Source: Cyanobacteriota bacterium
Lineage (GTDB): Bacteria > Cyanobacteriota > Cyanobacteriia > Cyanobacteriales > Nostocaceae
DNA: 64,000 bases
Assembly (NCBI GenBank): GCA_046045965.1
Contig: JBJOKS010000008.1
Location: forward strand, 100,676-164,675
Reading direction: 5' to 3'
This document shows, piece after piece, positions 15,037 through 61,381 of the stretch. Each line of letters starts with the position of its first letter. Positions within the stretch are counted from its first letter, which is position 1. The notes under the pieces are model-generated. The model was not told the origin of the DNA and did no database searches. It worked only from the letters and a program-made list of their open reading frames with translations. The position numbers and the translations under genes are program-made.

Positions 15037-15807
15037 TTACCCATTACCAATGCTTAATTTAACAATCACAGGAAAATGATCAGAAGGCCAAACAGCTTCC
15101 CACTGTTGACGGTCAATAATTACTTGTTCTATTTGCAAACGGCGATCGCAATATATCGTATCTATCGCATCCCCAGCTTCACCTGTAAACTCGTGAAAAG
15201 TTTTTTGTTCCTCTAAAGGAAAAGTTGCTAAAGCATCTTGTATTTTGTGATTATCAGCTAATATGATTCGTTCTAAAGTTCTCGGATTAGCGTTAAAATC
15301 TCCTGTTAACAGTAGGTAATCTTCAGCAGGAAATTCCATTAAACGTAAACTCACCAAACCTGCACCTAACTCTCTAGCTTTAGCACTTTCATGGTCTAAA
15401 TGAGTATTGACAATAGTTAAGGAAATACTAGGATTACCAACTACAAAATTAGCCCAAGTTGCCATCCGGGGTAAACGAGTTTCCCAAGTAATGCTACCAG
15501 GAATTTCTGGAGTATCGCTAAGGTAAAAATCTTTGGTTTGTTGAAGTTTTAGACGTTGGAAATTGTAAAAAACTGCACAATGTTCACCTTGTCCTGTACC
15601 CGTGCGATCGCCCCCAACAAATTTATATTCTGGTATAAGTGCTTGTAAATCCCTTAATTGATGGGGTTTACCTTCCTGCGTACCCAGTAAGTCTGGTTGA
15701 TAGTGTTGAATGAGAGATGCGATCGCACCTACACGCTTTTCCCACTGATGCACCCCCGGATCTGGTTTGTCGTAACGGAGGTTAAAACTCATGACGGTGA
15801 TTTTCAT
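15037..15807 (-). CDS. Endonuclease/exonuclease/phosphatase family protein
   Basis: SFNLRYD, GTQEG, NTHLDH, GDFN, SDHFPV. Confidence 0.9.
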   Translation of the reverse strand: MKITVMSFNLRYDKPDPGVHQWEKRVGAIASLIQHYQPDLLGTQEGKPHQLRDLQALIPEYKFVGGDRTGTGQGEHCAVFYNFQRLKLQQTKDFYLSDTPEIPGSITWETRLPRMATWANFVVGNPSISLTIVNTHLDHESAKARELGAGLVSLRLMEFPAEDYLLLTGDFNANPRTLERIILADNHKIQDALATFPLEEQKTFHEFTGEAGDAIDTIYCDRRLQIEQVIIDRQQWEAVWPSDHFPVIVKLSIGNG

Positions 15808-16090
15808 TAACTTCTTTAATTTAATCAATCTTGAGAAAAATATATATAGTGACTATATATTTTATAGTTCTGCAATAACTTAATGAGCAAGACTTAAACA
15901 AAAATCCCAAATTGGTATGAGGCTTGAGTAGATACAAATTCCCTGACCGACTTTAGCTTTAATAATTCCAACTCACACGAACTAAGCGATCAAGCCTCAG
16001 TCAAATTCTTTGGTAAATTCAGACGTACAACCCAGTTGTTAAATGAGAACCTGATTAATGTTTTTATGAGTCGTTTTTGCTATCGACAGC

Positions 16091-48868: not shown

Positions 48869-49570
48869 TCAGTGTGAGCAATTCATAATTGTATTATCCA
48901 AACGTCCATAAATTGCTGTTGGTTGATTACATAACCAAGCCCACATTTGATCACCAAAAGAAAAATGCCACCATTCTCTAGGGTTTCTTTGGAAACCTGC
49001 CTTTAACATGATATCATTTAACAATTGCCGACGGTGATGATATTCTGGATTTCTATTAACATAATAATCAGGGTGCGATCGCTCAGACATTTCATCAATT
49101 GGTGAACCCATATTCACAACTTCCCCATTTTCATCTACCAAAGTAATATCCACCGCAGCACCCGTACTGTGAGGAGGAGGAGTATTCATATCTAAACTTG
49201 GTAAAGCCCAAATTTCATAAACCGCTTGCCAAACTTCTTCCCTTTCTGCAACTGATAAATTAACCTCAATTAAACCCCTTTCCTGCAAAGCCTGTGCAAA
49301 GCTATAATCTACCATAAATTGCTGCACAGCCACCGGACGATAAGCATCAAATATTTGAATATACCAACCAGGATTTAGTAATTGTAAATAATTTTGTGCC
49401 GCAATTAAATTTTTGATCACACTTTCCCGCAGAAAATAAGGTGAATATCCCCCATAGTTAGCACCTAACTTTTCATAAGGATGGGGAGTTTCCACCGCAA
49501 ACATTTCTAGAGGAATATTAACTAAAGCTTCACCACATTCAATAATGGGTATTTTGTGATATGGACGCAT
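48869..49570 (-). CDS. D-Ala-D-Ala dipeptidase (M15D, VanX/DdpX-like)
   Basis: DAYRP, HSTGAAVD, EWWHF. Confidence 0.9.
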   Translation of the reverse strand: MRPYHKIPIIECGEALVNIPLEMFAVETPHPYEKLGANYGGYSPYFLRESVIKNLIAAQNYLQLLNPGWYIQIFDAYRPVAVQQFMVDYSFAQALQERGLIEVNLSVAEREEVWQAVYEIWALPSLDMNTPPPHSTGAAVDITLVDENGEVVNMGSPIDEMSERSHPDYYVNRNPEYHHRRQLLNDIMLKAGFQRNPREWWHFSFGDQMWAWLCNQPTAIYGRLDNTIMNCSH

Positions 49571-49608
49571 AATTTTACAAAAATGTAATTCTGAATAAAA
49601 TAAATAAT

Positions 49609-49857
49609 CTATAAATCCCGATGTTCGCAACAAGACTTTTCCTTGACCTCTGGTACTGGATCATAACCACCAGGATGGAACGGATGACAGCGTAAAATGC
49701 GCCAAATAGCCATCCAACCACCACGAAACACCCCAAACCGCTCAATAGCTTGGATAGCATACATCGAACAAGTCGGTTGAAAGCGACAAGTCGGGGGAAA
49801 CAGAGGAGAAATGAACAAGCGATAACCCTTAATTAACCAAATCAATAAAATTTTCAT
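49609..49857 (-). CDS. yidD: Membrane protein insertion efficiency factor
   Basis: [27 protein letters not shown]. Confidence 0.93.
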
Positions 49858-49908
49858 GCCCAAATCATTTAAAGTAGTATCCAAGTCCTAAAATCTTCAA
49901 TTCCATCA

Positions 49909-50616
49909 TTGTTGACTACATTTCCCAGTTTAGAATCTATTCTCCCATTGTGGCTGCAAATTTCCACAGCTGCGGCTTGGGTATTACTTGTCATCCTCAT
50001 CGCTTGGTTAGTCAGTCGCTTTACCAACAGCGAACCCGAAATCATCCGTAAAATAGTCCATATTGGCACAGGTAATGTAATTTTACTAGCTTGGTGGCTA
50101 AATATCCCCGCTATCGTTGGGATTACAGCTTCAATTTTAGGCAGTATCATTACTCTATTATCCTACATCTTCCCAATTTTGCCGGGAATTAATAGCGTCG
50201 GCCGCCAAAGTTTAGGAACTTTCTTCTATGCTGTGAGTATTGGGATTTTAGTTGGCTGTTTTTGGTATTTACAACAACCCCAATATGCAGCATTAGGAAT
50301 TCTAATAATGGCTTGGGGAGATGGACTAGCAGCTTTAATTGGGCAAAGATTTGGTCAACATAAATATCAACTTTTTGGCTCCAACAAAAGTTGGGAAGGT
50401 TCTTTAACAATGACTTTTATTAGTTTCCTGATTAGTCTGTTTATCTTACTACAAACACAAGGAAACACCTGGCAAACATGGCTAATATCAATAATCATAG
50501 CCATAGTAGCTACAGCCTTAGAAGCTTTTTCCTTTTTGGGGATTGATAATTTAACAGTTCCTATCGGTAGTGCAGCTTTAGCTTACGGCTTAACTCAAAT
50601 ACTGGTGCTTAATTGA
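49909..50616 (+). CDS. Phytol/polyprenol kinase family protein
   Basis: RKIVHIGTG, WGDGLAALIG, KSWEGS, DNLTVP. Confidence 0.9.
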   Translation: MLTTFPSLESILPLWLQISTAAAWVLLVILIAWLVSRFTNSEPEIIRKIVHIGTGNVILLAWWLNIPAIVGITASILGSIITLLSYIFPILPGINSVGRQSLGTFFYAVSIGILVGCFWYLQQPQYAALGILIMAWGDGLAALIGQRFGQHKYQLFGSNKSWEGSLTMTFISFLISLFILLQTQGNTWQTWLISIIIAIVATALEAFSFLGIDNLTVPIGSAALAYGLTQILVLN

Positions 50617-50926
50617 ATAGCTAATTACTAAGTTGTATATTGCTATATCCTCTCTAGCCTAGTATTGATAATATTAGCTATAGCCTCAAAAAACGTAAAA
50701 AGATATATAGATGTGGCAAATAAATTCAAAAACATCAAATATTAAATATACCCTCTCTCAGAGAATGACTATATCTGTAAAAATTAAAAGATTTTATATC
50801 TACTTTGAGAAGTAGAACTAATAAATTTGATTTCTATCCCTAGATTTATGAATTACTGAGCAAGAATGCTTATAGTTGGGTTGTTAGGTGGTGATTCACC
50901 TAATTTCGTAAGTGAGGCTAATAATT

Positions 50927-51307
50927 ATGTCCAATCAAATAAATGCGTCCGATTTGTTTATTGTCCTATCTGATCACCAACAAGAGTTTGTAACTGGTGG
51001 TGCTGATTTTGAATTAGCAGGTAGTAACTTCGCTAATAGATTAGCAAACCTGCAAGGTACGACAGCTTCGGGTCCTAATGGTAGCACTGGTAACTCCATC
51101 GGTACAAGTTCTGCTGTCAACACCGCAGCTCAAGACTTCTTAGGCTTGGGTACACCTATAGTTCCTCAAGTTGCTGCTTTGGGTGCTGCACCCGTTCTTA
51201 ATGGACAAACCGCACCTACAGGTCCTGGTGTTCCTGATGTTCCACTCGATGGTGGTGGTGGTGCTAGTGGTCCCTTCAATGGTGGTGGTGGTCCCTTCGG
51301 TGCCTAA
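50927..51307 (+). CDS. Double-glycine-leader secreted peptide precursor 1 (SGPNGS-type core)
   Basis: Leader MSNQINASDLFIVLSDHQQEFVTGG; GTGAGG SD; 126 aa. Confidence 0.85.
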   Translation: MSNQINASDLFIVLSDHQQEFVTGGADFELAGSNFANRLANLQGTTASGPNGSTGNSIGTSSAVNTAAQDFLGLGTPIVPQVAALGAAPVLNGQTAPTGPGVPDVPLDGGGGASGPFNGGGGPFGA

Positions 51308-51520
51308 ATCAAGCCTTTAATGAACCTTTTAACCATTCCCACAGGTGACTAAAAACATCAACTGTGACACCAGATGGTTTCATCCATCTAAATTTGAGAA
51401 TGGTACTTGGGGGTAATGAAAGAACCAAATACCCTGGTTCTTAATCATACCCCTCACTCAAATCTGCATAGAGATTTAGATTCTTTTATTTGGGATATTA
51501 CGCAAGTCAGGCTAACAATC

Positions 51521-51862
51521 ATGTCTTATTACACCATCATCTCCAATTCTTTTGCAGATTTATCTGAACAGCAACAGGAAAAGATCATTGGCGGCACAGA
51601 TTTTGAGTTATCTGGCAGCAATTTTGCTAACAGATTGGTCGTACTCAGGGGGTCTGTATCTTCTGGTCCAAATGGCAGTTTTTCAAATTCCTCTGGTCAA
51701 ATTTCAGAAGTCAATACCGCAGCCCAAGATTTATTAGGACTGGGTGCGCCATCTATACCTGATGTTCCTGCTCTGGGTTCTGCGCCAGTTCTTACTAGCT
51801 TACCAGCACTACCAAGAACAAGTTTGGCAGGTTTGGCAGGTTTGAGAAGATTAGATGATTGA
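51521..51862 (+). CDS. Double-glycine-leader precursor 2 (paralog of precursor 1)
   Basis: Leader MSYYTIISNSFADLSEQQQEKIIGG; core shares DFEL.GSNFANRL..SGPNGS..VNTAAQD.LGLG with precursor 1. Confidence 0.85.
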   Translation: MSYYTIISNSFADLSEQQQEKIIGGTDFELSGSNFANRLVVLRGSVSSGPNGSFSNSSGQISEVNTAAQDLLGLGAPSIPDVPALGSAPVLTSLPALPRTSLAGLAGLRRLDD

Positions 51863-51900
51863 GACGATTTGAAAATTTGAGTTTAGTGAGGCTAACAATC

Positions 51901-52212
51901 ATGTCGTATCTAATAATTGCATCTGAATGTTTTTTTGAGCTATCTGATCAGCAACAAGAACTATTAACTGGTGGTAATCAACCTCAAATCAGCAATAACA
52001 ATTTTTATCAAAAAGATGAAAATATAACAGAGACAAACAGCAATAATCCACTAGGCAAGGTTTCTCAAACTAATACCGATTTTACTGATGTCAATAGTGG
52101 CGCACAATCTATGTTGTCATCTAATACTCCCAAGGCTGGTCCATTTACATCGAGTAACAATTTAGTACCCAACATTCCTATATCAGTCAACAGACCACTA
52201 GGAATGTTTTAA
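51901..52212 (+). CDS. Double-glycine-leader precursor 3 (Asn-rich, diverged from 1/2)
   Basis: Leader MSYLIIASECFFELSDQQQELLTGG; NNF..NP.G..VNSGAQ aligns with precursors 1/2. Confidence 0.82.
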   Translation: MSYLIIASECFFELSDQQQELLTGGNQPQISNNNFYQKDENITETNSNNPLGKVSQTNTDFTDVNSGAQSMLSSNTPKAGPFTSSNNLVPNIPISVNRPLGMF

Positions 52213-53031
52213 GGGATTTACAAAAATGTGAACAATTAATGAACAATTAATTATGGTACAAACTTTAATTACATCAAGTCCCATCATGCAGTTATTTTTA
52301 GCAAAACAGCAATTGGGGATTATTTTTGCTTCCCATACTTTACTTTAAAAACTGCTATGGGCAAAGCTAAAAAAGCAAATTTTATACAAAATTCATTTTT
52401 ATTGGCTAATTCAGTTAATTTAAAACTCAATCTGCAAGTAGTTATCTGGAATCTTCTGTTTGTAATTAGGAAGGGGGGAGAGGAGATTCTGACTACTCGC
52501 TCAACGTAAGTGAGGACTTTGAGGGAGTTTGAGCGTTCTCCTCGGTTTTTTCTCAGCGTTGCCCACGTCAGAGATGTAAAGAAAAGTTTTGGCTATGGTC
52601 AGCGTTTTCTTTTCTTATCCCCCACTAATGATTATAGAGGATTCTTCACCATCATGTTTACTATTTTGAGCAACATATTTTATTCTGGCTGTGTTTAGTT
52701 GATTCCTCCCTTTTCATGATCCTGTATTTGGTAAAGTTGATACTTTGGATGTGATTTATTTTCACCAAAAGATAGAGACAAAGATACCTTTTTTGAAGGT
52801 TATCTGTTGAGATGTGATGCGGAATAATCACCGGACTAGAAAATGCTGAACTTGGCTAGTTAGTTGATGATGTTTCACAAAATAGAACGAAAAAACAACT
52901 TTTTACCACTATCTGAAGACATATTACCTCAGACAGTTATTTTTCCGTGTTCTGGGATTTCCAATCAAGTTATGTGGAGTTATTTAAGCCCCTTAGATAT
53001 CAGACTCGATATGAGATAACCCTCATTTTTA

Positions 53032-54585
53032 TTGATGTTTCAATCCAAAAGGTGCAACACCGTGGACTCTTTACGCCGCTATGAAGACTATGTTTGGAAT
53101 GGATCTCATGATCCTGGTTCTGAACATCTGCATTCAGTTGAAGTTAATGAGTTTCTGCCCCAAATTCATAACTGGACTAGCATTGGTTTGGGGGTAATGC
53201 TGACTATCTTTGTGGCAGGTGTAGGTTTGACAACTGTACTTACTTATAAGGTAACAGTAAAAGTTCCCGCCACTATTAGACCAGTAGGAGAACTACGGCT
53301 AGTTGAGTCGGCTATTTCCGGCCAGGTGCAAAAGATTGTAGTGAAAGATAATCAGGTATTGAATCAGGGAGATGCGATCGCTTACGTTGATGATTCTCGC
53401 CTACAAACACAAAAGAGGCAACTTCAAAGCAGTATTCAACAAGGTCAATTACAACTGGTACAACTTGATGCTCAACTAGGTGAAATCAATACCCAGATTT
53501 TGGCACAAGAAAATTTAAATAACCGCACAATTATAGCTGCACAAGCTGAGTTAGGTGGTACTCAACGCAACTTTGAAGATCAAGAAATTAAAGCTAATGC
53601 AGAAATGCAACAAGCAGAATTGGCTTTGAGATTTGCAAATTCACAACTTGCACGTTTGCAACAAGAAGGAGTGTTAAAAACAACTATAGAAGAGGCACAG
53701 ACAGCTTTAAATCTGGCTAAGTTACAAAGAGATAGATTGCAAGCGATCGCTGATTCTGGGGCAATATCTCACACTATGCTCGAAGAAAAACAACAAGCTG
53801 TTAAATCTGCCAGAGCCAAGTTAGAACAAGCTAAAAACAATGCTAAAACTCTTCTGGAGGAAAAACAACAAGCTCTAGAAATTGCTCAAACAAATCTATA
53901 TAAAGCGAGAACAGCTATCAATCCTAATAATTCTGCCGTCATTATCGCAGCGGAACGAATTAAACAAGAACAAGCTAGAGGTGAATCTACTTTATCCGCT
54001 TTAAAAAAAGAACTCCAGACTCTATTACAACAACGTCTGGAAATTCAAAAGCAACTTATTCGCACTCGTCAAGACTTACTACAAACAGAAACTGATTTGA
54101 ATCAGAGCATAATTCGCGCACCTATTACTGGCACATTACTACAATTAAAACTTCGTAACCCTGGACAAGTAGTACAACCCAGTGAAGCTGTTGCTCAAAT
54201 CGCTCCTCTCAATGCTCCTTTACAAATCAAGGCTTATGTACCTGCTCAAGAGATTAATAAAGTAGAACCAGGTCAAAAAGTCCAAATGCAAGTTTCCGCT
54301 TGTCCTTATCCAGATTACGGTACTCTCAAAGGCATTGTCAAAAACGTTGCTCCAGATATTTTACCAGTTGCACAAACCCAACCTCAAAATAATTCAGCCG
54401 CAAATATTCCCCAGGTTAATGGCTACGAAGTAACTATTAAACCAGAAACATTATATGTGGGTAGAGGCGAAAATAAATGTTATTTACAACCAGGAATGCA
54501 AGGACGTACTGATATTATTTCCCGTGAAGAAACCGTACTACAATTTATTCTCAGGAAAGCTAGATTAATTACTGATTTTAATTAG
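53032..54585 (+). CDS. HlyD-family secretion adaptor (start uncertain)
   Basis: NEFLP + TM helix, IRPVGELRLV, long coiled coil, IRAPITG, VSACPYPDYGTL. Confidence 0.92.
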   Translation: MMFQSKRCNTVDSLRRYEDYVWNGSHDPGSEHLHSVEVNEFLPQIHNWTSIGLGVMLTIFVAGVGLTTVLTYKVTVKVPATIRPVGELRLVESAISGQVQKIVVKDNQVLNQGDAIAYVDDSRLQTQKRQLQSSIQQGQLQLVQLDAQLGEINTQILAQENLNNRTIIAAQAELGGTQRNFEDQEIKANAEMQQAELALRFANSQLARLQQEGVLKTTIEEAQTALNLAKLQRDRLQAIADSGAISHTMLEEKQQAVKSARAKLEQAKNNAKTLLEEKQQALEIAQTNLYKARTAINPNNSAVIIAAERIKQEQARGESTLSALKKELQTLLQQRLEIQKQLIRTRQDLLQTETDLNQSIIRAPITGTLLQLKLRNPGQVVQPSEAVAQIAPLNAPLQIKAYVPAQEINKVEPGQKVQMQVSACPYPDYGTLKGIVKNVAPDILPVAQTQPQNNSAANIPQVNGYEVTIKPETLYVGRGENKCYLQPGMQGRTDIISREETVLQFILRKARLITDFN

Positions 54586-54641
54586 TCATTCGTCATTAGT
54601 TTAGTTACGCAATCTTTCTGTTTTGGAAACTTGAATTGTTT

Positions 54642-56810
54642 ATGTTTAATATATTCAGACATCGAAAAAAATACCAATCTATTTTACAAGCTAGTGAAGA
54701 AGACTGTGGTGCAGCTTGTTTAGCTTCCATTTGCAAATATTACGGACGCTTCTTAACCATAAATAAAAGCCGAGAAGCCGTAGGAACAGGACAACTAGGA
54801 ACAACTTTATTAGGTTTAAAACGCGGATCTGATAATTTAGGATTCAATGCTAGAGCCGTTAAAGCCTCTCCAGAACTAGTAGATAGAATCACAGAAATCC
54901 AACTACCAGCTATTATTCATTGGCGCGGTTATCACTGGGTGGTTTTATATGGAAAAAAGGGTAAAAAATTTGTTATTGCTGATCCATCTGTAGGTATTCG
55001 CTATATCAAACGCGAGGAATTATTAGCAGCTTGGAACGGAGTCATGCTCTTATTAGAGCCAGATGCAGAGCGTTTTTCTCAACAACCCCAAGAAAAACCC
55101 CACGGTGGTTTGTTACGCTTTTTTATGCGAATTCTGCCCTATCGGGGATTGCTCACTCAGGTTTTGATGATCAATATTATTCTGGGTATCTTGGCGTTAG
55201 GATCTCCTGTTTTAATTCAAATACTCACTGATGATGTCTTAGTCAGGGGAGATATTCAGCTACTCACAGTAGTAGTAGCCGCTGTTGTGGTCATGACTTT
55301 ATTTAGTAGTAGTTTACAAGTCATACAAGCTACTATGATCGCTCATTTTGGGCAACGATTACAATTAGGATTAGTCTTAGATTTTGGACGGAGAATATTA
55401 CAATTACCTTTGAGTTATTACGAATCTCGTCGCAGTGGTGAAATTACTAGCCGATTGGGTGATATTGGTGAAATTAATCAATTAATTTCTCAGGTAGTAG
55501 TGCTATTACCTAGCCAGGTTTTTATTGCCATTATTTCCTTTTGCTTGATGCTATTTTATAGTTGGCAATTAACAATCGCAGTGTTGATTTTCGCTGCTTT
55601 AATGACTCTATCGACCCTGCCATTTTTACCCATACTGCAACAAAAAACCCGCAGTCTTTTAGTTTTAGGAGCAGAAAATCAAGGTGTATTAGTAGAAACT
55701 TTTAAAGGCGCTCAGGTGATCAAAACTACTAATGCTGCTCCTCAATTTTGGGATGAATTTCAAAGCCGTTTCGGTCGTCTAGCTAATCTCACTTTCAGCA
55801 CAATTCAAATTGGAATTATTAACGGTACTGTTTCTAAACTCCTCTCTACTCTTGGAGGTGTAATTTTACTGGGTATAGGCAGTATGTTAGTAATTAACAA
55901 CAAATTAACTATTGGTCAAATGCTGGCTTTTAATGCCTTACAAGTGAATGTCTTAGCTTTAATTGGTACTTTGGTGGGATTAGTAGATGAATATTTCCGT
56001 TCTCAAACCGCAATTTCTCGTTTACTAGAAGTTATTGATGCCACACCGGAAGTAGTTGGAGGTAGTCAAAAGCCGATTGTACAAATCTCAGGTGATGCGG
56101 ATATTCATTTTTCTCATCTGACATTTCACCATGCAGGAAGAGTTGATTTATTGGAGAATTTCTCTCTGAAGCTTCCCGGTGGAAAGGTAATTGCTTTAAT
56201 TGGTCAATCAGGTTGTGGTAAAAGTACCTTAGCAAAACTAATTGCAGGTTTATATGAGCCAACTTCAGGTAATATCCGCATTGGGGTTTTTAATATTCAT
56301 GATCTTTCCCTTGACTGTTTGCGACAACAAGTAGTTTATGTACCCCAAGAACCACATTTTTGGAGTCGTTCAATTTTAGAAAACTTTCGTTTAGGAACAC
56401 CTGCTATTCCTTTTGATCAAATTGTTCAAGCTTGTGAAATTGCCGATGCAGATGGTTTTATTAGTCAATTACCTAATAAGTATCAAACTGTGTTAGGAGA
56501 ATTTGGTGCAAATCTTTCTGGTGGACAAAGACAAAGATTAGCGATCGCACGGGGAATACTCACCAATCCACCTATTTTAATTTTAGATGAAGCCACCGCA
56601 GGATTAGATCCAGTTAGTGAAACTCTTGTCTTAGATCGATTGTTGGAATCTCGCAAAGGACAAACCACAATTTTGATTACCCATCGTCCCAGTGTAGTTA
56701 ATCGAGCAGATTGGATAGTGTTAATGGATAAAGGCCAAGTCAAACTCCAAGGTAGTATAGAAACTTTTCTGTCTCAAAAAGGAGAGCATTTAAAATTCTT
56801 AACCATATAA
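54642..56810 (+). CDS. Peptidase C39-containing ABC transporter (PCAT)
   Basis: Q.SEEDCGAACL catalytic Cys, HWVV His, IADP Asp; TMD; GQSGCGKST, LSGGQRQR, ILDE. Confidence 0.96.
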   Translation: MFNIFRHRKKYQSILQASEEDCGAACLASICKYYGRFLTINKSREAVGTGQLGTTLLGLKRGSDNLGFNARAVKASPELVDRITEIQLPAIIHWRGYHWVVLYGKKGKKFVIADPSVGIRYIKREELLAAWNGVMLLLEPDAERFSQQPQEKPHGGLLRFFMRILPYRGLLTQVLMINIILGILALGSPVLIQILTDDVLVRGDIQLLTVVVAAVVVMTLFSSSLQVIQATMIAHFGQRLQLGLVLDFGRRILQLPLSYYESRRSGEITSRLGDIGEINQLISQVVVLLPSQVFIAIISFCLMLFYSWQLTIAVLIFAALMTLSTLPFLPILQQKTRSLLVLGAENQGVLVETFKGAQVIKTTNAAPQFWDEFQSRFGRLANLTFSTIQIGIINGTVSKLLSTLGGVILLGIGSMLVINNKLTIGQMLAFNALQVNVLALIGTLVGLVDEYFRSQTAISRLLEVIDATPEVVGGSQKPIVQISGDADIHFSHLTFHHAGRVDLLENFSLKLPGGKVIALIGQSGCGKSTLAKLIAGLYEPTSGNIRIGVFNIHDLSLDCLRQQVVYVPQEPHFWSRSILENFRLGTPAIPFDQIVQACEIADADGFISQLPNKYQTVLGEFGANLSGGQRQRLAIARGILTNPPILILDEATAGLDPVSETLVLDRLLESRKGQTTILITHRPSVVNRADWIVLMDKGQVKLQGSIETFLSQKGEHLKFLTI

Positions 56811-56839
56811 ATTTTTCCCTAGTGTGAGGAGTAAAAAGC

Positions 56840-57154
56840 GTGTCTGAAAACTTTACCGCCAACCATGAAAACTGGTTCTTTAACTTATCTGAAGCAGAGC
56901 AAGAAACTCTAGCTGCTGGACAATCTCAGAATATGCTCGGTAAAACTGATTTGTTTTTTCAGAATACTAACATTGAAACTGAGGCAGATAGAAACTTAAA
57001 TATAGGAGGTGATTCTGATAACCAAAGGACAAAATATCGCTTATCTCAAATTACAATAGGTTCATCTATGACCTTTTTTATTCCTGATATTAATTCAGGT
57101 GTACAGGGATGGAATAACTTACTTAATACTTTTTTGGGGAAATTATTTTCCTAA
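56840..57154 (+). CDS. Precursor 4 with variant leader (ends AAG)
   Basis: GAGGAG SD, GTG start, FFNLSEAEQETLAAG; directly after the PCAT. Confidence 0.75.
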   Translation: MSENFTANHENWFFNLSEAEQETLAAGQSQNMLGKTDLFFQNTNIETEADRNLNIGGDSDNQRTKYRLSQITIGSSMTFFIPDINSGVQGWNNLLNTFLGKLFS

Positions 57155-57475
57155 TTAAAGCAATTTGCCAGAACAGGTATTACACATCTTATATATTATA
57201 TATATTGTGGGTTAGGCATCTTGCCTAACCTGTTTAGAAAATTCAGATGAAATAAGCTATAAGATTGAGCAATTATCAATCATAAGGCTTGGTTCATTTG
57301 GGTTGAGATACTCTTGCGCTATTAATCATATTAATTGCCGATATATTACATACATCGCAAGATAGAAAAATTTCCCATACATTTACTACCAGAGGATATT
57401 TAAATTATAAAAAATTGCAATTATAAAAATAACATAGGTTGATTAGAACCTATTCATAAATTGAGGCTAACAATC

Positions 57476-57694
57476 ATGTCAAATGAAAATATGACATCTG
57501 ATTTACTTGTGGAGTTACCGACAGAGCAACAACAGCTTCTGTCAGGAGGACAAAGGTATCCAGTAATCTGCTATGACTACGAACCCTATTTTAGAGGTGG
57601 TAGAGGTCGTGGCGGTCGTGGCGGTCGTGGCGGTGGAGATGTCGATGTTGATGTCGATGTTGATGTCGAGAGAAGACGTAGGAGGGGATTTTAA
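57476..57694 (+). CDS. Precursor 5 (RGG / (DV)5 / poly-Arg core)
   Basis: Leader MSNENMTSDLLVELPTEQQQLLSGG; 72 aa. Confidence 0.85.
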   Translation: MSNENMTSDLLVELPTEQQQLLSGGQRYPVICYDYEPYFRGGRGRGGRGGRGGGDVDVDVDVDVERRRRRGF

Positions 57695-57991
57695 GTGGAC
57701 AAAACCCAAAAATTGGGTAGCCATTTAATTTCAATCTAATTTCAATCTAATTTCAATCTGGCATTTACTAGAGGAAAGAGAAAGCTTATATAACTAGCTC
57801 AAAATGATTAGTTTTGAGTGAGTGTTTCTACTCTCAGATGTTCTCTTGAAATATTAAATTAAACTTCTAGATAAAACTTCTAGATACTAGCAAGAGAACT
57901 ACTAGAGATAACCCTGATCTTTCTCTTTCCTCCTTCGTCTTTATCAAAAAGTAAACAATGCTAACAAGTGCAGTAAGTGAGGCAAATAGTT

Positions 57992-58192
57992 ATGTCTAAG
58001 CAAAATATCACAGCTGATTTATTTGTGAATTTAACCGCAGAGCAACAGGAAGTTATATCCGGGGGAAATTGCGGTTATTCTCCTTGTTATAAACCCAAGA
58101 AATGCTGTGGAGAAGACAAAGCTTACAAGGAATATACATCCTGTTCTTGCTCTGATAGCTACCCAGGTGTTGATGATTCCGATGGTTATTAG
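57992..58192 (+). CDS. Precursor 6 (6 Cys, 6 Tyr core)
   Basis: Leader MSKQNITADLFVNLTAEQQEVISGG; 66 aa. Confidence 0.85.
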   Translation: MSKQNITADLFVNLTAEQQEVISGGNCGYSPCYKPKKCCGEDKAYKEYTSCSCSDSYPGVDDSDGY

Positions 58193-58591
58193 CAATAGTT
58201 CTAGATAGGCTAATTCAATATATAGGAGTCCGGTTTGATTCCTCAAATGACTCTTTAGGGCGGGGAATAGGGAATAGATAAGAATGGAACTTCCTGCGGA
58301 CAGAATTTTTGCAAAAATAAAATATAAGTCCTATAGCCATTCTAAATTAGTCGTAAATATAAAAATTCCTAACTTCTTTAAAAGTTGGGAATTTCCTGGT
58401 GTAGTGTAGTACAAATAATCCGAATTTTATAAATCAAATATGAGCAGTAATTTCAATTAATTTGTTTAGGTCTAAAGGCTGAATTTATAAAAATTATGTT
58501 CTAACTAATGAATCATTAATTTTAGCAAAAAGAGGTTTATAAAAAGATTATTGGTGTATAACACCTATGAAAAAAGTGAGGTTAAAAAATC

Positions 58592-58816
58592 ATGTCCAAT
58601 CAAAGCATTACTTCTGATTTACTTGTGGAGTTATCCACAGACCAACAACAGCTTCTGTCAGGAGGACAAAGAAGGAGAAGAAGAGGAGGTAGAGGCAGCT
58701 TTGGTGGTGGTGGTGGTGAAGAATGGAGCTGCTTGGACTGCATCCCCTTAGATGATTTTGGCGATGGCGGGTTCCAAAGAGGTGGACGTAGAGGTGGACG
58801 TAGAGGCCGTAGATAA
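58592..58816 (+). CDS. Precursor 7 (Arg/Gly-rich with CxxC)
   Basis: Leader MSNQSITSDLLVELSTDQQQLLSGG; 74 aa. Confidence 0.85.
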   Translation: MSNQSITSDLLVELSTDQQQLLSGGQRRRRRGGRGSFGGGGGEEWSCLDCIPLDDFGDGGFQRGGRRGGRRGRR

Positions 58817-59133
58817 GGTCATATCGATGTTGCTTTTTTAATGTTGATGTCAATTTCGATAGAAGATGTCAAAGATTTTAAGTGGAAAAATCCAGGAATT
58901 GGGTAGCTACTTAATTCCCATCTGGCATTTACTAGAGGAAATAAAAAGATTATAAACCATCTCAAAATAATTAAGTTTTGAGAGAGTTTGGGTAGAGTCA
59001 ATGTTCTCTTCAAGCATTACATTAAACTTCCAGATAATAGCAAGAGAACTACTAAAGATCACCCTGATATTTCAACTTCCTCTTTCTTTCTAATCACAAG
59101 GTAAATAATTCCAGTAAGTGAGGCAAAAAAATC

Positions 59134-59454
59134 ATGTTGAATCAAAACATTGCAGCTGATTTACTTCAGGAGATATCCACAGAAGAACAAGAACTTCTGT
59201 CCGGAGGTAATTATCAGGACCCATCCCGTCGATACAAGGGCAGGGGCAGGGGTCAGAACCAGAAGCAAACTCAGTTCATCAATGTGATCGTCCCTCAGCC
59301 ACAAAATCCTTATGACGATGGCGGCATCGGTGGCGGTAACGGTGGCGGTAACGGCGGTAATGGCGGTAATGGCGGTAATGGTGGCGGCGACGATGAGGGC
59401 GAACGTGGCGACATGATGAAAGGAGGCTGCATGGGCCTTGGCTATGGACGCTAA
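59134..59454 (+). CDS. Precursor 8 (Gln-rich then GGN-repeat core)
   Basis: Leader MLNQNIAADLLQEISTEEQELLSGG; 106 aa. Confidence 0.85.
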   Translation: MLNQNIAADLLQEISTEEQELLSGGNYQDPSRRYKGRGRGQNQKQTQFINVIVPQPQNPYDDGGIGGGNGGGNGGNGGNGGNGGGDDEGERGDMMKGGCMGLGYGR

Positions 59455-59866
59455 GGAAGTCCTAGTCCTGCTTACAGAGGGGCGTTACTTTTAAGTTGGC
59501 ACTGTCCACAAAGCTAAGTCACCCCCTAGTTTAAACTCTTGAATTAGTAAATAAAGGAGAAAACTTAGAGAATTTATTCAATACAAATTGCATCAAATTT
59601 TGAGAATATTTCGGGATTCTCCTTTATTCTTTTCAGAGATTAAATCAAAAGTGCAGATAACAGAAAAGTAAAGGCTATTTATAGCAGTTACTTTTCTCCT
59701 GCACCTTAATTACATTAATTTATTTACTTCTAAAGATAGAAATTATAAATGTTAGCTTCTAACTAGAGAATAATTGCATTTATAAATACTAAGTTTATAA
59801 GAAAAGTAGGGTTTAGGTTGATCGCACAGATGAACCACCTTAGTAAACCAATTGAGGCCAACAATT

Positions 59867-60133
59867 ATGTCAGATCAAAACATTAAATCTGATTTAGTTC
59901 AGGATATATCCACTGAAGAACAGGAACTTCTATCTGGTGGTCACTGGGGACGCTGGGGCGGTGGACCAGGTTGGGGACGCTGGGGCGGTAGTCCAGGTTG
60001 GGGACGCTGGGGCGGTAGTCCAGGTTGGGGACGCTGGGGCGGTGGACCAGGTTGGGGACGCTGGGGCGGTGGACCAGGTTGGGGTCATCCCTGGAAAGGA
60101 CATCACCATCATGGCCATGGACGATGGTGGTAG
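59867..60133 (+). CDS. Precursor 9 (WGRWGG[G/S]PG x5 plus His-rich tail)
   Basis: Leader MSDQNIKSDLVQDISTEEQELLSGG; 88 aa. Confidence 0.87.
   Translation: MSDQNIKSDLVQDISTEEQELLSGGHWGRWGGGPGWGRWGGSPGWGRWGGSPGWGRWGGGPGWGRWGGGPGWGHPWKGHHHHGHGRWW
59945..60084 (+). repeat. 27-bp coding tandem repeat, 5 copies
   Basis: TGGGGACGCTGGGGCGGT(GGA/AGT)CCAGGT repeated contiguously. Confidence 0.95.
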
Positions 60134-60487
60134 TGACCTGGACAAATCCACAAAGTAAATAGACTTCCAATTCTTGTGGGTTGAGCGGTAAAAGAGCAAT
60201 AGTAAAATGTTTTGATGTAAGAATTCAGGAGTCAGGAGTCAGGAGTCAGAATATTTGTTTGTAGCACAGAGATACGGAAGTACGTTTTTTCCATCAATTA
60301 TCAAGAATAACTCGAAAACTCTGATTCATTCTGTAGGCGTAGCCGTGCCGCAGGCTATCCTGTATTCTGTATCCTGAATCCTTACGTTTTGATTTGCTAC
60401 TTACTCTTTACCTCTTAACCTTTTCTCCGATACCAAGGAAGGTTGTTTGTATTAATCTGAGAAGTATTGTCAAACATGGCAAAAATC

Positions 60488-61381
60488 TCAAACTGATAGC
60501 GCACCAATCCAATCCTGTAAAATCGGATTTACCAATTCAGGAGCTTCATCTTGGGGACAATGTCCCACTCCTTCCAGAGGAATAAATTTTTGTACCTGGG
60601 GAAAATTGGCTAACTCTCTACCTAAATCTATTGGTTCCCAAGGGTCAGCATTTCCCCATAAAATAATTGCTGGGCAAGGTAGTAAGGGTAAAAGGTCTTC
60701 AGGTAAGGGTCCACTAGAATAAGCCGTGAAAGCCAAAAATACCCCCGCAGCACCAGGATCACTTGCTGGTTTCATCAGCATCTCTACCAACTCATCTGTC
60801 ACTGTGTCCCCATTGGCATAAGCTTGGAGAAGAATTTTTTTAACGGTTTTAGGTTTTGCTAGTTGACTAAAAAAGAATTCACCAACTCCTGGAATTGATA
60901 AAAGCTTTTGTAAAATTGGCGCTCCAACACGTTTTGTCCAAGGTAGAGTTAACCGTTTGCGATCGTGTAATAATCTCAAAGAACAATTGAGTAAAGCAGT
61001 TCCCAAAGCTATATCTGGGTTATTTACCGCAGCTTGCATGGCGACAATACAACCAATGGAATTACCTACTAAAAATGCAGGTTCTTCCACAACTTGCCGA
61101 CAAAAATCTGCTATTTGTTGTCCCCAGGTTTCTAGGGTGTAGGTTATTTTCTCTCCAGGTTGGGGTTTAGCAGAACCACCAAAACCAATCAAGTCAATGG
61201 CATAGACCCGACAAGTTTCTGCTAAAACTGGTATATTTTTGCACCAGTGTCCCCAGGATGCACCAAAGCCATGCACCAGAATTACAGCAGGTCCTTGAGT
61301 ACCTTGAGTTTGGTAACAGATGGGGAAACCTTGCCAAATCCAGGTTTTGCTTGAGGTAAATACATTTTTAGAAGTTGTCAT
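60488..61381 (-). CDS. Alpha/beta hydrolase (pheophytinase-like subfamily)
   Basis: VHGFGAS, DLIGFG, GNSIG, GHCPQDE. Confidence 0.9.
   Translation of the reverse strand: MTTSKNVFTSSKTWIWQGFPICYQTQGTQGPAVILVHGFGASWGHWCKNIPVLAETCRVYAIDLIGFGGSAKPQPGEKITYTLETWGQQIADFCRQVVEEPAFLVGNSIGCIVAMQAAVNNPDIALGTALLNCSLRLLHDRKRLTLPWTKRVGAPILQKLLSIPGVGEFFFSQLAKPKTVKKILLQAYANGDTVTDELVEMLMKPASDPGAAGVFLAFTAYSSGPLPEDLLPLLPCPAIILWGNADPWEPIDLGRELANFPQVQKFIPLEGVGHCPQDEAPELVNPILQDWIGALSV

Follow-up and report, generated by a model that had tools for sequence, protein, structure and literature searches.

What does a cyanobacterium release through a single transporter around which nine precursor genes are arrayed, and how is the synthesis of such a cargo kept in check? 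To our knowledge, clusters of double-glycine peptide genes are among the commonest unexplained gene sets of cyanobacteria; they have been catalogued since 2011, yet EbfG, from a single unicellular strain, is the only case with a known function. The cluster addressed here is located in a stretch of 64,000 nt (referred to below as the window, whose coordinates are used throughout) from a Cyanobacteriota bacterium of the Nostocaceae (assembly GCA_046045965.1, contig JBJOKS010000008.1, positions 100,676-164,675 of the forward strand). It occupies positions 50927-60133, where nine co-oriented small open reading frames (ORFs) of the plus strand flank two large ones, encoding HlyD and a C39-peptidase ATP-binding cassette (ABC) exporter, i.e. 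a peptidase-containing ABC transporter (PCAT). In our opinion the best explanation (probability of roughly 0.55) is that this is an export locus with a two-tier cargo, the translation of which would be held back by a small RNA.

A preliminary description of this DNA had already recognised the arrangement of the nine ORFs around the two transport genes, and Pfam and NCBIfam domains bear it out at these positions. The genes of the locus are listed below; the starts of the precursors were relocated to the Met codon (GTG in p4) that follows a common GAGG site, and leader and core lengths are given in amino acids (aa).

50927-51307, plus strand: p1, 25-aa leader and 101-aa core; CTB family, NF038167 88.2 bits; GTAAGTGAGG in the ribosome-binding site (RBS) at 50908
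51521-51862, plus strand: p2, 25-aa leader and 88-aa core; CTB family, NF038167 75.6 bits
51901-52212, plus strand: p3, 25-aa leader and 78-aa core; divergent CTB member, NF038167 53 bits, in the BLAST cluster of p1 and p2
53032-54585, plus strand: hlyD, periplasmic adaptor (membrane fusion protein); HlyD_3 1.7e-19; TIGR01843 (type_I_hlyD) 5.4e-39, under the cut-off of that model
54636-56810, plus strand: PCAT of the "short type" (724 aa); Peptidase_C39, ABC_membrane and ABC_tran
56840-57154, plus strand: p4, first gene after the PCAT; GTG start, 27-aa leader (AAG) and 77-aa core; "LSQxTxG" family
57476-57694, plus strand: p5, 47-aa core with RGG and DV repeats and an Arg tail
57992-58192, plus strand: p6, 41-aa core with six Cys ("CYKPKKCC" family); GTAAGTGAGG in the RBS at 57973
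58592-58816, plus strand: p7, Arg/Gly-rich 49-aa core, net charge +7
59134-59454, plus strand: p8, 81-aa core with GGN repeats; GTAAGTGAGG in the RBS at 59114
59867-60133, plus strand: p9, 63-aa core of GWGRWGGxP repeats with a His/Trp tail, net charge +7

With the starts placed in this way, eight of the nine precursors have a leader of 25 aa ending in GG, and that of p4 comprises 27 aa and ends in AAG; the leader lengths, the core range of 41-101 aa and the common GAGG site had all been given correctly in the preliminary description. An RBS of the form GTGAGGC..ATG is common to the precursors, whose nine 5′ regions align over (A/G)TGAGGC(T/A)AA(C/A)AAT(C/T)ATGTC; this alignment extends through the leader-coding part and fails upstream of the motif and in the cores. 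The leaders themselves align without gaps, apart from a 2-aa insert in p4 (consensus ..SDL.v.LS.eeQelLsGG). A hidden Markov model (HMM) built from the nine leaders scored 37.6-52.8 bits with its own precursors and, in the rest of the genome (5.29 Mb), detected only four ORFs at E<0.05 (three on contig C15 and one on contig C7). Because so few other ORFs are found, the precursor set lies far beyond chance. Leaders ending in GG, GA or AG, with conserved hydrophobic and acidic positions and encoded beside a transporter, characterise double-glycine substrates of C39 peptidases, and cleavage at these sites is predicted.

The PCAT unites in one chain the domains Peptidase_C39 (residues 13-144, 7.2e-36), ABC_membrane (177-436) and ABC_tran (506-655). 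Its translation shows Q18, C24 (..EEDCGAAC..), H100 (..GYHWVVL..) and D116 (..IADP..), which we take to be the catalytic residues on the basis of familiar C39/ABC motifs rather than a structural alignment, as well as Walker A (GQSGCGKST), Walker B, the signature LSGGQRQR and an H-loop. hlyD is the only other large ORF in the locus. Six C39-bearing ORFs are present in the genome, and a TolC-like ORF with two OEP repeats is carried by contig C22, unlinked to the locus. We infer the following route of cleavage and export: (i) the nine precursors would be translated, (ii) the C39 domain of the PCAT would bind the leaders of approx. 25 aa and cut after GG (AG in p4) and (iii) the unmodified cores would leave via the PCAT, HlyD and the unlinked TolC-like channel, to act outside the cell.

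The locus was compared with its relatives in a species-representative genome collection, where 543 relatives of the PCAT were detected; the counts of loci given here refer to the best 80 of the 543 (65-96% identity), mostly from Nostocales, and many of these loci end early at contig ends. A leader HMM combined with a test of synteny had been recommended in the preliminary description; the model was specific within the genome, and leader ORFs are present in 79 of the 80 loci (343 in all, 1-12 per locus), with hlyD present in 78 (median HlyD identity 61%). The flanks are also recurrent: a phytol-kinase-like ORF was found in 49 loci, yidD in 46, an alpha/beta hydrolase gene in 42, and pyrH and frr in 37. 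In Nostocaceae the locus is a fixed and syntenic component of the chromosomal core genome, and not an island. It is bounded on both sides by housekeeping genes, as had been claimed; according to Pfam, the flanking ORFs of the window encode His_Phos_1, Peptidase_M15, YidD, an alpha/beta hydrolase, AhpC/TSA, UMP kinase (AA_kinase) and RRF proteins, and one ORF without a match is presumably the phytol-kinase-like one.

Analysis of the cores revealed two tiers, separated by their position. The 347 cores were grouped by core-only BLAST clustering, which masks low complexity and was repeated unmasked for p5-p9; it replaced iterated core HMMs run on whole stop-to-stop ORFs, which were discarded because they drifted via the common leader. 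One BLAST cluster, which includes p1-p3, comprises 122 cores, every one of them encoded upstream of hlyD (consensus ADFELxGSNFANR...SGPxGS...NTAAQDxLGLG). These three precursors pass the curated cut-off (32 bits) of NF038167, the 72-position NCBIfam model named "CTB family bacteriocin", with matches over positions 1-69, i.e. leader and core. The scores of p4-p9 (15.8-23.1 bits) lie below the cut-off, and the match is confined to positions 1-22 up to 1-38, which correspond to the leader, so that not all nine precursors belong to this family, whose name is an annotation. No Pfam family was found for any of the nine in the Pfam search, and the remark of the preliminary description that the downstream cores do not resemble known bacteriocins is consistent with these results. 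The second conserved family is that of p4, with 30 cores from 30 sources (29 loci and the window), of which 28 are encoded downstream of the PCAT; the gene usually begins 4-32 nt past the PCAT stop codon. A wide protein search with p4 yielded five close relatives, all unnamed or "hypothetical".

The composition of the cores follows the same division. The upstream cores (n = 142) are rich in Gly, Ala, Ser, Leu, Asn and Thr, with a net charge of -3 or lower in 67 of them. The downstream cores outside the p4 family (n = 169) contain 20.5% Gly, 9.9% Arg and 7.2% Tyr; a net charge of at least +3 was noted in 58 and an aromatic content of at least 20% in 53. Cores with at least 25% Gly number 49 downstream and 0 upstream. 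The predicted mature N-terminus is Ala or Val in 104 of 141 upstream cores and Gln in 84 of 193 downstream cores, where it could cyclise to pyroglutamate.

Hypervariable repeat cores with Gly, Arg and aromatic residues occur only downstream. Singletons account for 97 of the 347 cores in the masked clustering. Without masking, relatives of p5 were found in 3 loci, relatives of p6 in 9 and Trp/Gly/Arg-repeat look-alikes of p9 in 25, whereas p8 gave only low-complexity matches and p7 none among the 347 cores. The cores had been described as unrelated between subgroups, which does not apply to all of them: p1-p3 form one family, and p4, p5, p6 and p9 have relatives or compositional look-alikes elsewhere. 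Gene content turns over even among genomes whose PCATs are 94-96% identical. Tandem DNA repeats are present within p5, p7, p8 and p9, with units of 9-12 bp in the first three (in p5 GGTCGTGGC x3.3 and GATGTCGATGTT x2.7; in p8 TGGCGGTAA x4.3) and a unit of 27 bp in p9 (x5.2, 96% identity, positions 59945-60084). Since these repeats are young, slippage is an obvious source of core variability. We propose that the hypervariable tier (p5-p9), composed of cationic or Cys-rich low-complexity peptides with Gly, Arg and aromatic residues, would be diversified by repeat slippage together with gene turnover, and that its peptides would be antimicrobial or else attach to the anionic sheath or matrix.

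In five loci of the Dolichospermum/Anabaena type (L055, L052, L064, L067 and L075) the downstream region contains one leader ORF each on the opposite strand. These ORFs form a small family of their own, with a conserved core of approx. 35 aa (..KGVLEGTGDFVYGG.TFPAT..V.NLP..).

The notion of a single transporter exporting a cocktail of unmodified peptides, put forward in the preliminary description, is supported in so far as one PCAT and one HlyD accompany many GG-leader substrates and no tailoring enzyme is encoded in the locus. It is very probable that the cores are exported unmodified. That they are instead precursors of ribosomally synthesised and post-translationally modified peptides, matured by enzymes encoded elsewhere (with thioether or disulfide bonds in p6, or Tyr/Trp cross-links), appears improbable. 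Such a view could draw on the six Cys of p6, accompanied by Ser and Thr, on the occurrence of at least two Cys in 51 of the 169 downstream cores outside the p4 family, on the completeness of the genome (only 92.2%) and on the remark of Wang et al. (PMC3140520) that LanM genes and their precursors can be far apart. However, LanM, YcaO and radical-SAM genes are absent from the flanks of the locus, in agreement with the preliminary description, and the syntenic locus of the window contains no tailoring gene. YcaO gave 0 matches in the 92.2% complete genome in a search whose control was positive in 5 genomes; LanC-like proteins likewise gave 0 matches, in a search whose control matched nowhere. 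Moreover, the leaders are short GG leaders, with no NHLP or Nif11 match in NCBIfam for any precursor, and p1-p3 and p9 are devoid of Cys.

The locus belongs to a known kind. The catalogue of Wang, Fewer & Sivonen 2011 (PMC3140520) comprises 145 clusters, with arrays of up to sixteen precursors; its group III combines HlyD and a short-type C39 transporter with a mean of 3.9 precursors. Correspondingly, the PCAT of the window is devoid of the CAP_ED extension of approx. 300 aa, it is accompanied by HlyD and several precursors, and no peptidase-less ABC gene and no LanM, SurA or S8 gene is present. Group III clusters share with this locus the dense arrays of double-glycine precursors with unconserved cores; the positional split of core types, the repeat hypervariability, the synteny and the RNA gene of the present locus do not appear in the consulted portion of the catalogue. 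The order precursor(s)-hlyD-PCAT-precursors is also that of the Anabaena PCC 7120 cluster CDS21 - alr1200 (HlyD) - alr1201 (PCAT) - asr1202/1203/1204 (PMC12267927, Tables S5/S6), and an EbfG-like role in biofilms was proposed in 2025 for Anabaena PCC 7120 clusters including alr1200-asr1204 (PMC12267927). The novelty implied by the preliminary description (many unmodified cores, no tailoring genes and an EbfG-like role) was thus largely anticipated in print (PMC3140520, PMC12267927). What we believe to be new is the family-wide synteny, the two-tier cargo with its strict positional split, the repeat-driven turnover and, above all, the conserved small RNA of the minus strand.

What the exported cores do may be approached from the predicted structure of the conserved ones. 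AlphaFold models of the p4 and CTB cores were produced with alignments built from the related loci. In the p4 model (mean pLDDT 77.9), residues 6-28 and 31-52 form the two strands of a beta-hairpin (block pLDDT 86-93), and a helix occupies residues 60-76. The CTB core (mean pLDDT 69.9) also gave a hairpin, with strands at 3-22 and 29-48 (block pLDDT 71-85), and its Gly/Pro tail is disordered. Long hairpins of this type are unlikely to be stable alone and would therefore have to oligomerise, as fibrils or barrels; on the strength of these models, the CTB and p4 hairpin cores probably need oligomerisation. A complex model of four copies of p1 core residues 1-55 scored 0.02, against a mark of 0.42, which counts neither for nor against self-association. 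Searches of the PDB with both hairpin models returned nothing at E<=0.001. We propose that the conserved tier, i.e. the upstream CTB cores (p1-p3) together with the p4 family behind the PCAT, would self-assemble outside the cell, probably into surface or matrix fibrils.

A comparable system is that of Synechococcus elongatus, where the GG-motif small proteins EbfG1-4 are encoded, as here, beside a PCAT (PteB, Synpcc7942_1133) and an HlyD gene. The EbfG proteins are exported and needed for biofilm formation (PMC4997328; cited in PMC12267927), and EbfG1-3 are reported to form amyloid (cited in PMC12267927). Alr1201, the probable orthologue of the PCAT of the window, is reported to be 55.8% identical to PteB, whereas the published identity of Asr1202-1204 to EbfG1-4 is only 11-27% (PMC12267927). 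The EbfG4-like proteins of Anabaena are located in the asr5139 cluster (PMC12267927), whose layout is like that of a second locus on contig C15 and not like that of the window. asr1202 is reported to be 11-fold up in Anabaena biofilms (PMC13156569). For the co-assembly into sheath, biofilm or akinete-envelope material envisaged in the preliminary description, this increase and the hairpin models are indirect hints. A role of the conserved tier in the matrix or in self-assembly is suggested tentatively, with chances somewhat short of even.

The alternative is a plain bacteriocin arsenal, in which nine unmodified class II- or microcin-like peptides would be directed against cyanobacteria, heterotrophs or grazers, their variability reflecting an arms race, and the producer would be protected by its envelope or by the leader-bound state of the precursors, with the small RNA as a safety brake. 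Class II bacteriocins and microcins such as colicin V (CvaAB) are likewise unmodified and Gly-rich; they carry double-glycine leaders and leave the cell via a PCAT, a membrane fusion protein and TolC. Colicin V-type systems share with this locus the C39-ABC transporter, the HlyD-like adaptor and the unlinked outer-membrane channel; the present locus differs in the lack of an immunity gene, the core-genome site, the much longer, repeat-rich cores and the nine cargoes per pump. An arsenal would agree with the NCBIfam name of p1-p3, with the turnover of gene content between genomes with nearly identical PCATs, with the cationic and aromatic-rich downstream cores, whose Trp/Arg and Gly/His/Tyr repeats resemble antimicrobial classes, and with the non-significant shape matches of the hairpins, the best of which are stems of beta-barrel pore toxins. 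The CTB genes of Nodularia are induced under phosphate starvation, which its authors read as allelopathy (PMC9846622). On the other hand, no immunity gene is recognisable in the locus, as the preliminary description had noted (in our view an absence of evidence), the site is a syntenic part of the core genome and not an island, and the CTB and p4 cores stay conserved from genus to genus, which is not typical of weapon genes. The CTB cores are, in addition, acidic or neutral, rich in Asn, Gln, Ser and Gly, and not amphipathic. No antimicrobial activity is reported for any member in the consulted portions of the literature, and none for the CTB family in those of the two papers that use its name. 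An antimicrobial function is possible, and we consider it the lesser candidate for the conserved tier.

It is very improbable that all or part of the peptides (p4, for example) serve as pheromone-like signals governing filament, akinete or hormogonium behaviour, as proposed for exporters of the HetC type. The conservation of p4 directly behind the PCAT in most loci would suit a signal, PCATs of Gram-positive bacteria export pheromones and HetC has been proposed as a signal exporter (PMC10986499). The locus, however, contains no sensor kinase or response regulator, cores of 41-101 aa built of repeats are long for pheromones, and nine distinct cargoes are unlikely all to be signals.

How, then, is the synthesis of the cargo controlled? 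The gap between p3 and hlyD (820 bp) contains a stretch of approx. 160 nt which was matched by BLAST at the equivalent place in 60 of the 80 loci with 75-94% identity, whereas the median for the HlyD protein is only 61%. It is a conserved small RNA gene that the preliminary description had missed, although it lies inside the coordinates which that description covered. The gene, its promoter-like site and three weaker copies are given below; R1 denotes the covariance model of the small RNA.

52464-52627, minus strand: small RNA gene (approx. 160 nt); closing helix P0 and three arms; apical loop CCUCACUU(AC) antisense to the precursor RBS motif; R1 152.7 bits
52631-52660, minus strand: promoter-like site; TAAACA (52660-52655), 18-nt spacer, TATAAT (52636-52631); 10 of 12 consensus matches
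57763-57936, minus strand: d1, degenerate small RNA paralogue in the p5-p6 spacer; R1 33.0 bits, E 0.00026-0.004
58927-59086, minus strand: d2, weak small RNA-like element in the p7-p8 spacer; R1 24.8 bits, E 0.0085
59542-59709, minus strand: d3, marginal small RNA-like element in the p8-p9 spacer; R1 23.5 bits, E 0.015

A -10 box (TATAAT or TACAAT) precedes the GGGG start by 6-9 nt in 59 of 61 aligned minus-strand sequences. RNAalifold, applied to a sequence-only MAFFT alignment (A3) of 58 minus-strand sequences, predicted a closing helix, two hairpin arms and a third arm, the inner hairpin of which bears the 8-nt apical loop CCUCACUU. In this fold 91.1% of the cells are paired (a figure inflated by the derivation of the structure from the same sequences), compared with 48-59% when the partners are slid by 1-3 columns. 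Both sides change in 18 of the 40 pairs, involving 106 cells as against 36 in shuffles; the observed covariation was matched by 0 of 500 shuffles on four of five measures and by 1 of 500 on the fifth. An excess of G.U (171 cells) over A.C (67 cells) favours the minus strand, as do the z-scores of single-sequence folds (-3.46 for the minus and -1.37 for the plus strand).

R1 scored at least 84.8 bits at the site before hlyD in 58 of the 80 loci, with three more loci at 50-53 bits, and found one copy in its own genome. Among the genomes sampled, it was detected in 6 of 7 of the same family and in 1 of 143 of other families of the order. A search of Rfam 15 across positions 50500-60600 of the window gave no match at E<=1. 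We are highly confident that the small RNA is real and that it is encoded on the minus strand. A leader or terminator of hlyD on the plus strand was considered and rejected, since the -10 box, the excess of G.U and the z-scores of the folds all point to the minus strand. Two earlier models were also given up: a first consensus on a plus-strand alignment (A2), which was poor (-6.6 kcal/mol, 14 pairs), and a hand-drawn "stem B" (CGCTCAA/TTGAGCG), which showed many breaks and no compensatory change and was replaced by a minus-strand hairpin.

RNA libraries provide further information, limited to presence in the library: contigs from them indicate neither strand nor level nor proven transcription, and DNA may be included. 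The parts of the locus free of contigs (most of hlyD, the PCAT and p4) carry no information, and depths cannot rank genes. A mismatch-free contig of 122 nt from one metatranscriptomic run covers 52492-52613, with adapters abutting 52475 and 52614, which approximates the predicted RNA. Besides this contig, a remark in PMC3141674 supports a transcript; the passage of Flaherty et al. fits the site and strand of the small RNA, provided that the clusters are orthologous. Two metatranscriptomic runs, each from a different study, gave mismatch-free contigs over p1 (contig 50900-51314), p3, p5 (contig 57454-57763), parts of p2 and the ends of p9, as well as over the p5-p6 spacer with the start of p6 and the p7-p8 spacer with the start of p8.

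Three further observations were made in these libraries. A run labelled metatranscriptomic, but probably DNA (X3), contains a 1319-nt contig spanning p1-p3 (50954-52253) with 52 differences and transposase-type adapters at both ends; it originates from a close relative, whose hlyD is on separate contigs of lower depth. In addition, two low-depth "joints" (50940/58628 and 51526/59156) skip approx. 7.6 kb and link the leaders of p1 and p7 and of p2 and p8. Their most likely origin is a cross-over during assembly, since the leaders involved are nearly identical; recombination of leaders would look alike.

The loop of the RNA and its flank read CCUCACUUAC, which is antisense to the RBS motif of the precursors (GUAAGUGAGG) and exactly so to the extended RBS of p1, p6 and p8. 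On the plus strand, GTAAGTGAGG is invariant at the loop in the 61-sequence alignment; because the surrounding helices covary while this stretch does not change, selection on an exposed sequence, and not decay, is indicated. This 10-mer occurs 9 times in the genome (7.5 expected from composition), four of the sites being RBSs of GG precursors (p1, p6, p8 and an unlinked gene on contig C7) and one the RNA gene itself.

Across the loci, the 5′ regions of precursors (-30 to +6) match the 14-nt loop region over at least 7 contiguous nt in 157 of 334 cases, against 28 of 3333 random positions of the same loci, which served as the control in place of the RBSs of other genes; the only other genes compared were hlyD and the PCAT, which match the loop by 4 and 0 nt. 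The median duplex energy is -13.7 kcal/mol for precursors versus -7.8 kcal/mol for random positions. Matches of at least 8 nt were noted in 70 of 118 CTB genes, in 72 of 187 precursors outside the CTB and p4 families (mostly downstream) and in none of the 29 p4-family genes. Where the RNA gene is present, 150 of 262 precursors match by at least 7 nt; where it is lacking, 7 of 72 do so. When the RNA gene carries T in place of C at the seed flank, T is also present in 9 of 13 RBSs, otherwise in 12 of 87. A promoter box, conservation of structure and seed and an enrichment of complementarity are thus all found in silico, as expected of a trans-acting small RNA (sRNA) directed against RBSs.

We propose that this RNA of approx. 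160 nt, transcribed divergently before hlyD, would pair with the GUAAGUGAGG RBSs and hold back translation of the peptides, its targets being most of the CTB and variable precursor genes, including the unlinked one. As it is fully antisense to a p3-to-hlyD read-through transcript, it may also influence expression of the transporter. On balance we favour an action of the small RNA on the precursor RBSs, though only narrowly; both the pairing with the mRNAs and its repressive sign are inferred.

A rather unlikely alternative is that the element has no action in trans, being either a cis element of hlyD-PCAT (a cis-antisense RNA or an attenuator on p3 read-through) or the relic of a duplicated 5′ untranslated region, with the degenerate copies reflecting growth of the locus by duplication of a spacer element together with a leader. 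Weaker R1 matches on the same strand were indeed found in downstream precursor spacers of the window and of about 17 related loci. In the window, d1-d3 keep the outer (closing) helix and the central hairpin and have lost the anti-RBS loop (CCUCACUUAC in the case of d1); in our reading they arose by duplication of an [RNA + leader] module and have since decayed, which would explain the unusually long downstream spacers. The plus-strand text common to loop and RBS is compatible with paralogy, and the element lies approx. 400 nt before hlyD, fully complementary to the read-through transcript. Against this alternative stand the invariance of the loop amid covarying helices, the -10 box of the element's own, the 12-nt match kept by an unlinked precursor on another contig and the rarity of the RBS motif in loci that lack the RNA gene.

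Several points weigh against the explanation favoured here, that of a two-tier export locus under an RNA brake. Since the RNA loop and the RBS motif are identical plus-strand text, their match, the co-occurrence and the "covariation" of the flank could all have arisen without any regulation, through gene conversion or common descent linking a duplicated 5′ untranslated region with the RNA gene. The co-occurrence is confounded by relatedness, as the loci that lack the RNA gene are at the same time the most distant. Motif enrichment was measured against random positions. The seed is Shine-Dalgarno-like, and some pairing is therefore expected with any RBS. In the window, p2, p5 and p9 match the loop by only 4-5 nt, and the p4 family is without the target motif. 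Of 61 sequences, only 34 have a C-run and TTTT terminator at the other end of the RNA. In the first alignment, two of the three helices gave no clear answer in the G.U/A.C strand test, and the limits of the RNA libraries given above also apply. As regards the cargo, the fast-evolving cationic cores rich in Trp, Arg and Gly look antimicrobial and fit weapons at least as well as a matrix; the top PDB rows (E 0.087-0.19, non-significant, shape likeness only) are pore-toxin stems and flagellar ring proteins; and orthology to alr1200-1204 is deduced from gene order only.

If the RNA brake exists, it may have a broader significance. We tentatively suggest that it is a "gatekeeper", i.e. a Nostocaceae-specific sRNA whose invariant loop would pair with the extended RBS of most genes of a fast-changing exported cocktail, unlinked members included, and brake their translation, a proposal to which we give less than an even chance. 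A newly acquired peptide gene would fall under the brake automatically as long as it retained the 5′ module. The RNA would replace an immunity protein by preventing the build-up of self-assembling or toxic pre-peptides while the exporter is not ready, a logic like that of type I toxin-antitoxin systems coupled to PCAT secretion, and the copies d1-d3 would be fossils of the [sRNA + leader] duplications that built the array.

IstR-1/tisB is a type I toxin-antitoxin pair with a divergently encoded sRNA. Like such systems, the new RNA adjoins, and is divergent from, small-peptide genes whose start regions it matches; its presumed targets are many exported GG-leader peptide genes, whereas those systems have a single membrane-toxin gene. 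With Yfr1 (RF01116), which in this genome carries ACUCCUCACACC between two hairpins, it shares UCCUCAC in the loop and the principle of a short exposed C/U-rich sequence antisense to the Shine-Dalgarno regions of several mRNAs. It differs from both Yfr1 and IstR-1 in its length (approx. 160 nt), its closing helix with three arms, the lack of an Rfam match and its restriction to one family.

Full-text literature yielded nothing on an sRNA combined with bacteriocin, Nostoc and Shine-Dalgarno, or on glycine-rich double-glycine peptides of Nostoc. The readable supplements of Brenes-Alvarez et al. 2016 contain neither alr1199, alr1200, all1198 nor the seed motif, the table giving positions only, so that the RNA may be there. 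The main text of a 2026 survey of cyanobacterial RNA structures does not mention HlyD, bacteriocin, C39, "ABC transporter", secretion or peptidase. As far as the literature and Rfam were searched, we believe the small RNA to be undescribed; supplements that list positions only or are unreadable may contain it.

The RBS of p4 (GUGUGAGGAGU, 56822-56832) is complementary, at 11 of 11 positions, to the motif that is single-stranded in Yfr1 of this genome, where the 11-mer occurs only 3 times. The Yfr1 gene was located via the motif on contig C6, approx. 135749-135813 (locus L082, 150-214; RF01116, 62.1 bits). At least 8 nt of the complement are kept in 7 of 29 p4-family genes, a weak conservation.

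The other leader-bearing ORFs of the genome are found at two sites. A second GG-peptide locus on contig C15 (approx. 60490-65705) has the opposite order, with three leader ORFs followed by a C39 transporter of 717 aa and an ORF of 473 aa. Its third precursor is p4-like (..LSQITIG..), and the first two are unlike both the CTB and the variable cores; the layout resembles that of the Anabaena asr5139-alr5148 cluster, reported to be EbfG4-like. Contig C7 (approx. 15804-16067, minus strand) carries an orphan GG-leader precursor with a Gln/Pro/Gly-rich core and no adjoining exporter. The 12-nt motif ACGTAAGTGAGG is located 9 nt before its ATG.

Two of the flanking genes deserve a brief comment. A VanX-type D-Ala-D-Ala dipeptidase (Peptidase_M15, 3.8e-40) is encoded two genes from the locus (48869-49633, minus strand) and recurs in 16 of the 80 loci. 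yidD (formerly DUF37; 49609-49884, minus strand) adjoins the locus in the related loci counted above and looks like a housekeeping gene; its fixed synteny may account for the inclusion of "DUF37" proteins among the possible precursors near such clusters in Wang et al. 2011.

The results presented here make one double-glycine peptide cluster a fixed syntenic feature of the heterocyst-forming Nostocaceae, with a cargo in two tiers. The small RNA, with its defined seed and target sites, offers a concrete regulatory handle, and the system is directly testable in Anabaena PCC 7120. The repeat peptides rich in Gly, Tyr, Trp and Arg constitute a natural library of short secreted low-complexity sequences, of interest for studies of adhesion, coacervation and antimicrobial activity. 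If the RNA brake proves true, it would be a possible answer to the question of how these cyanobacteria carry many potentially self-assembling or toxic peptides with no immunity gene.

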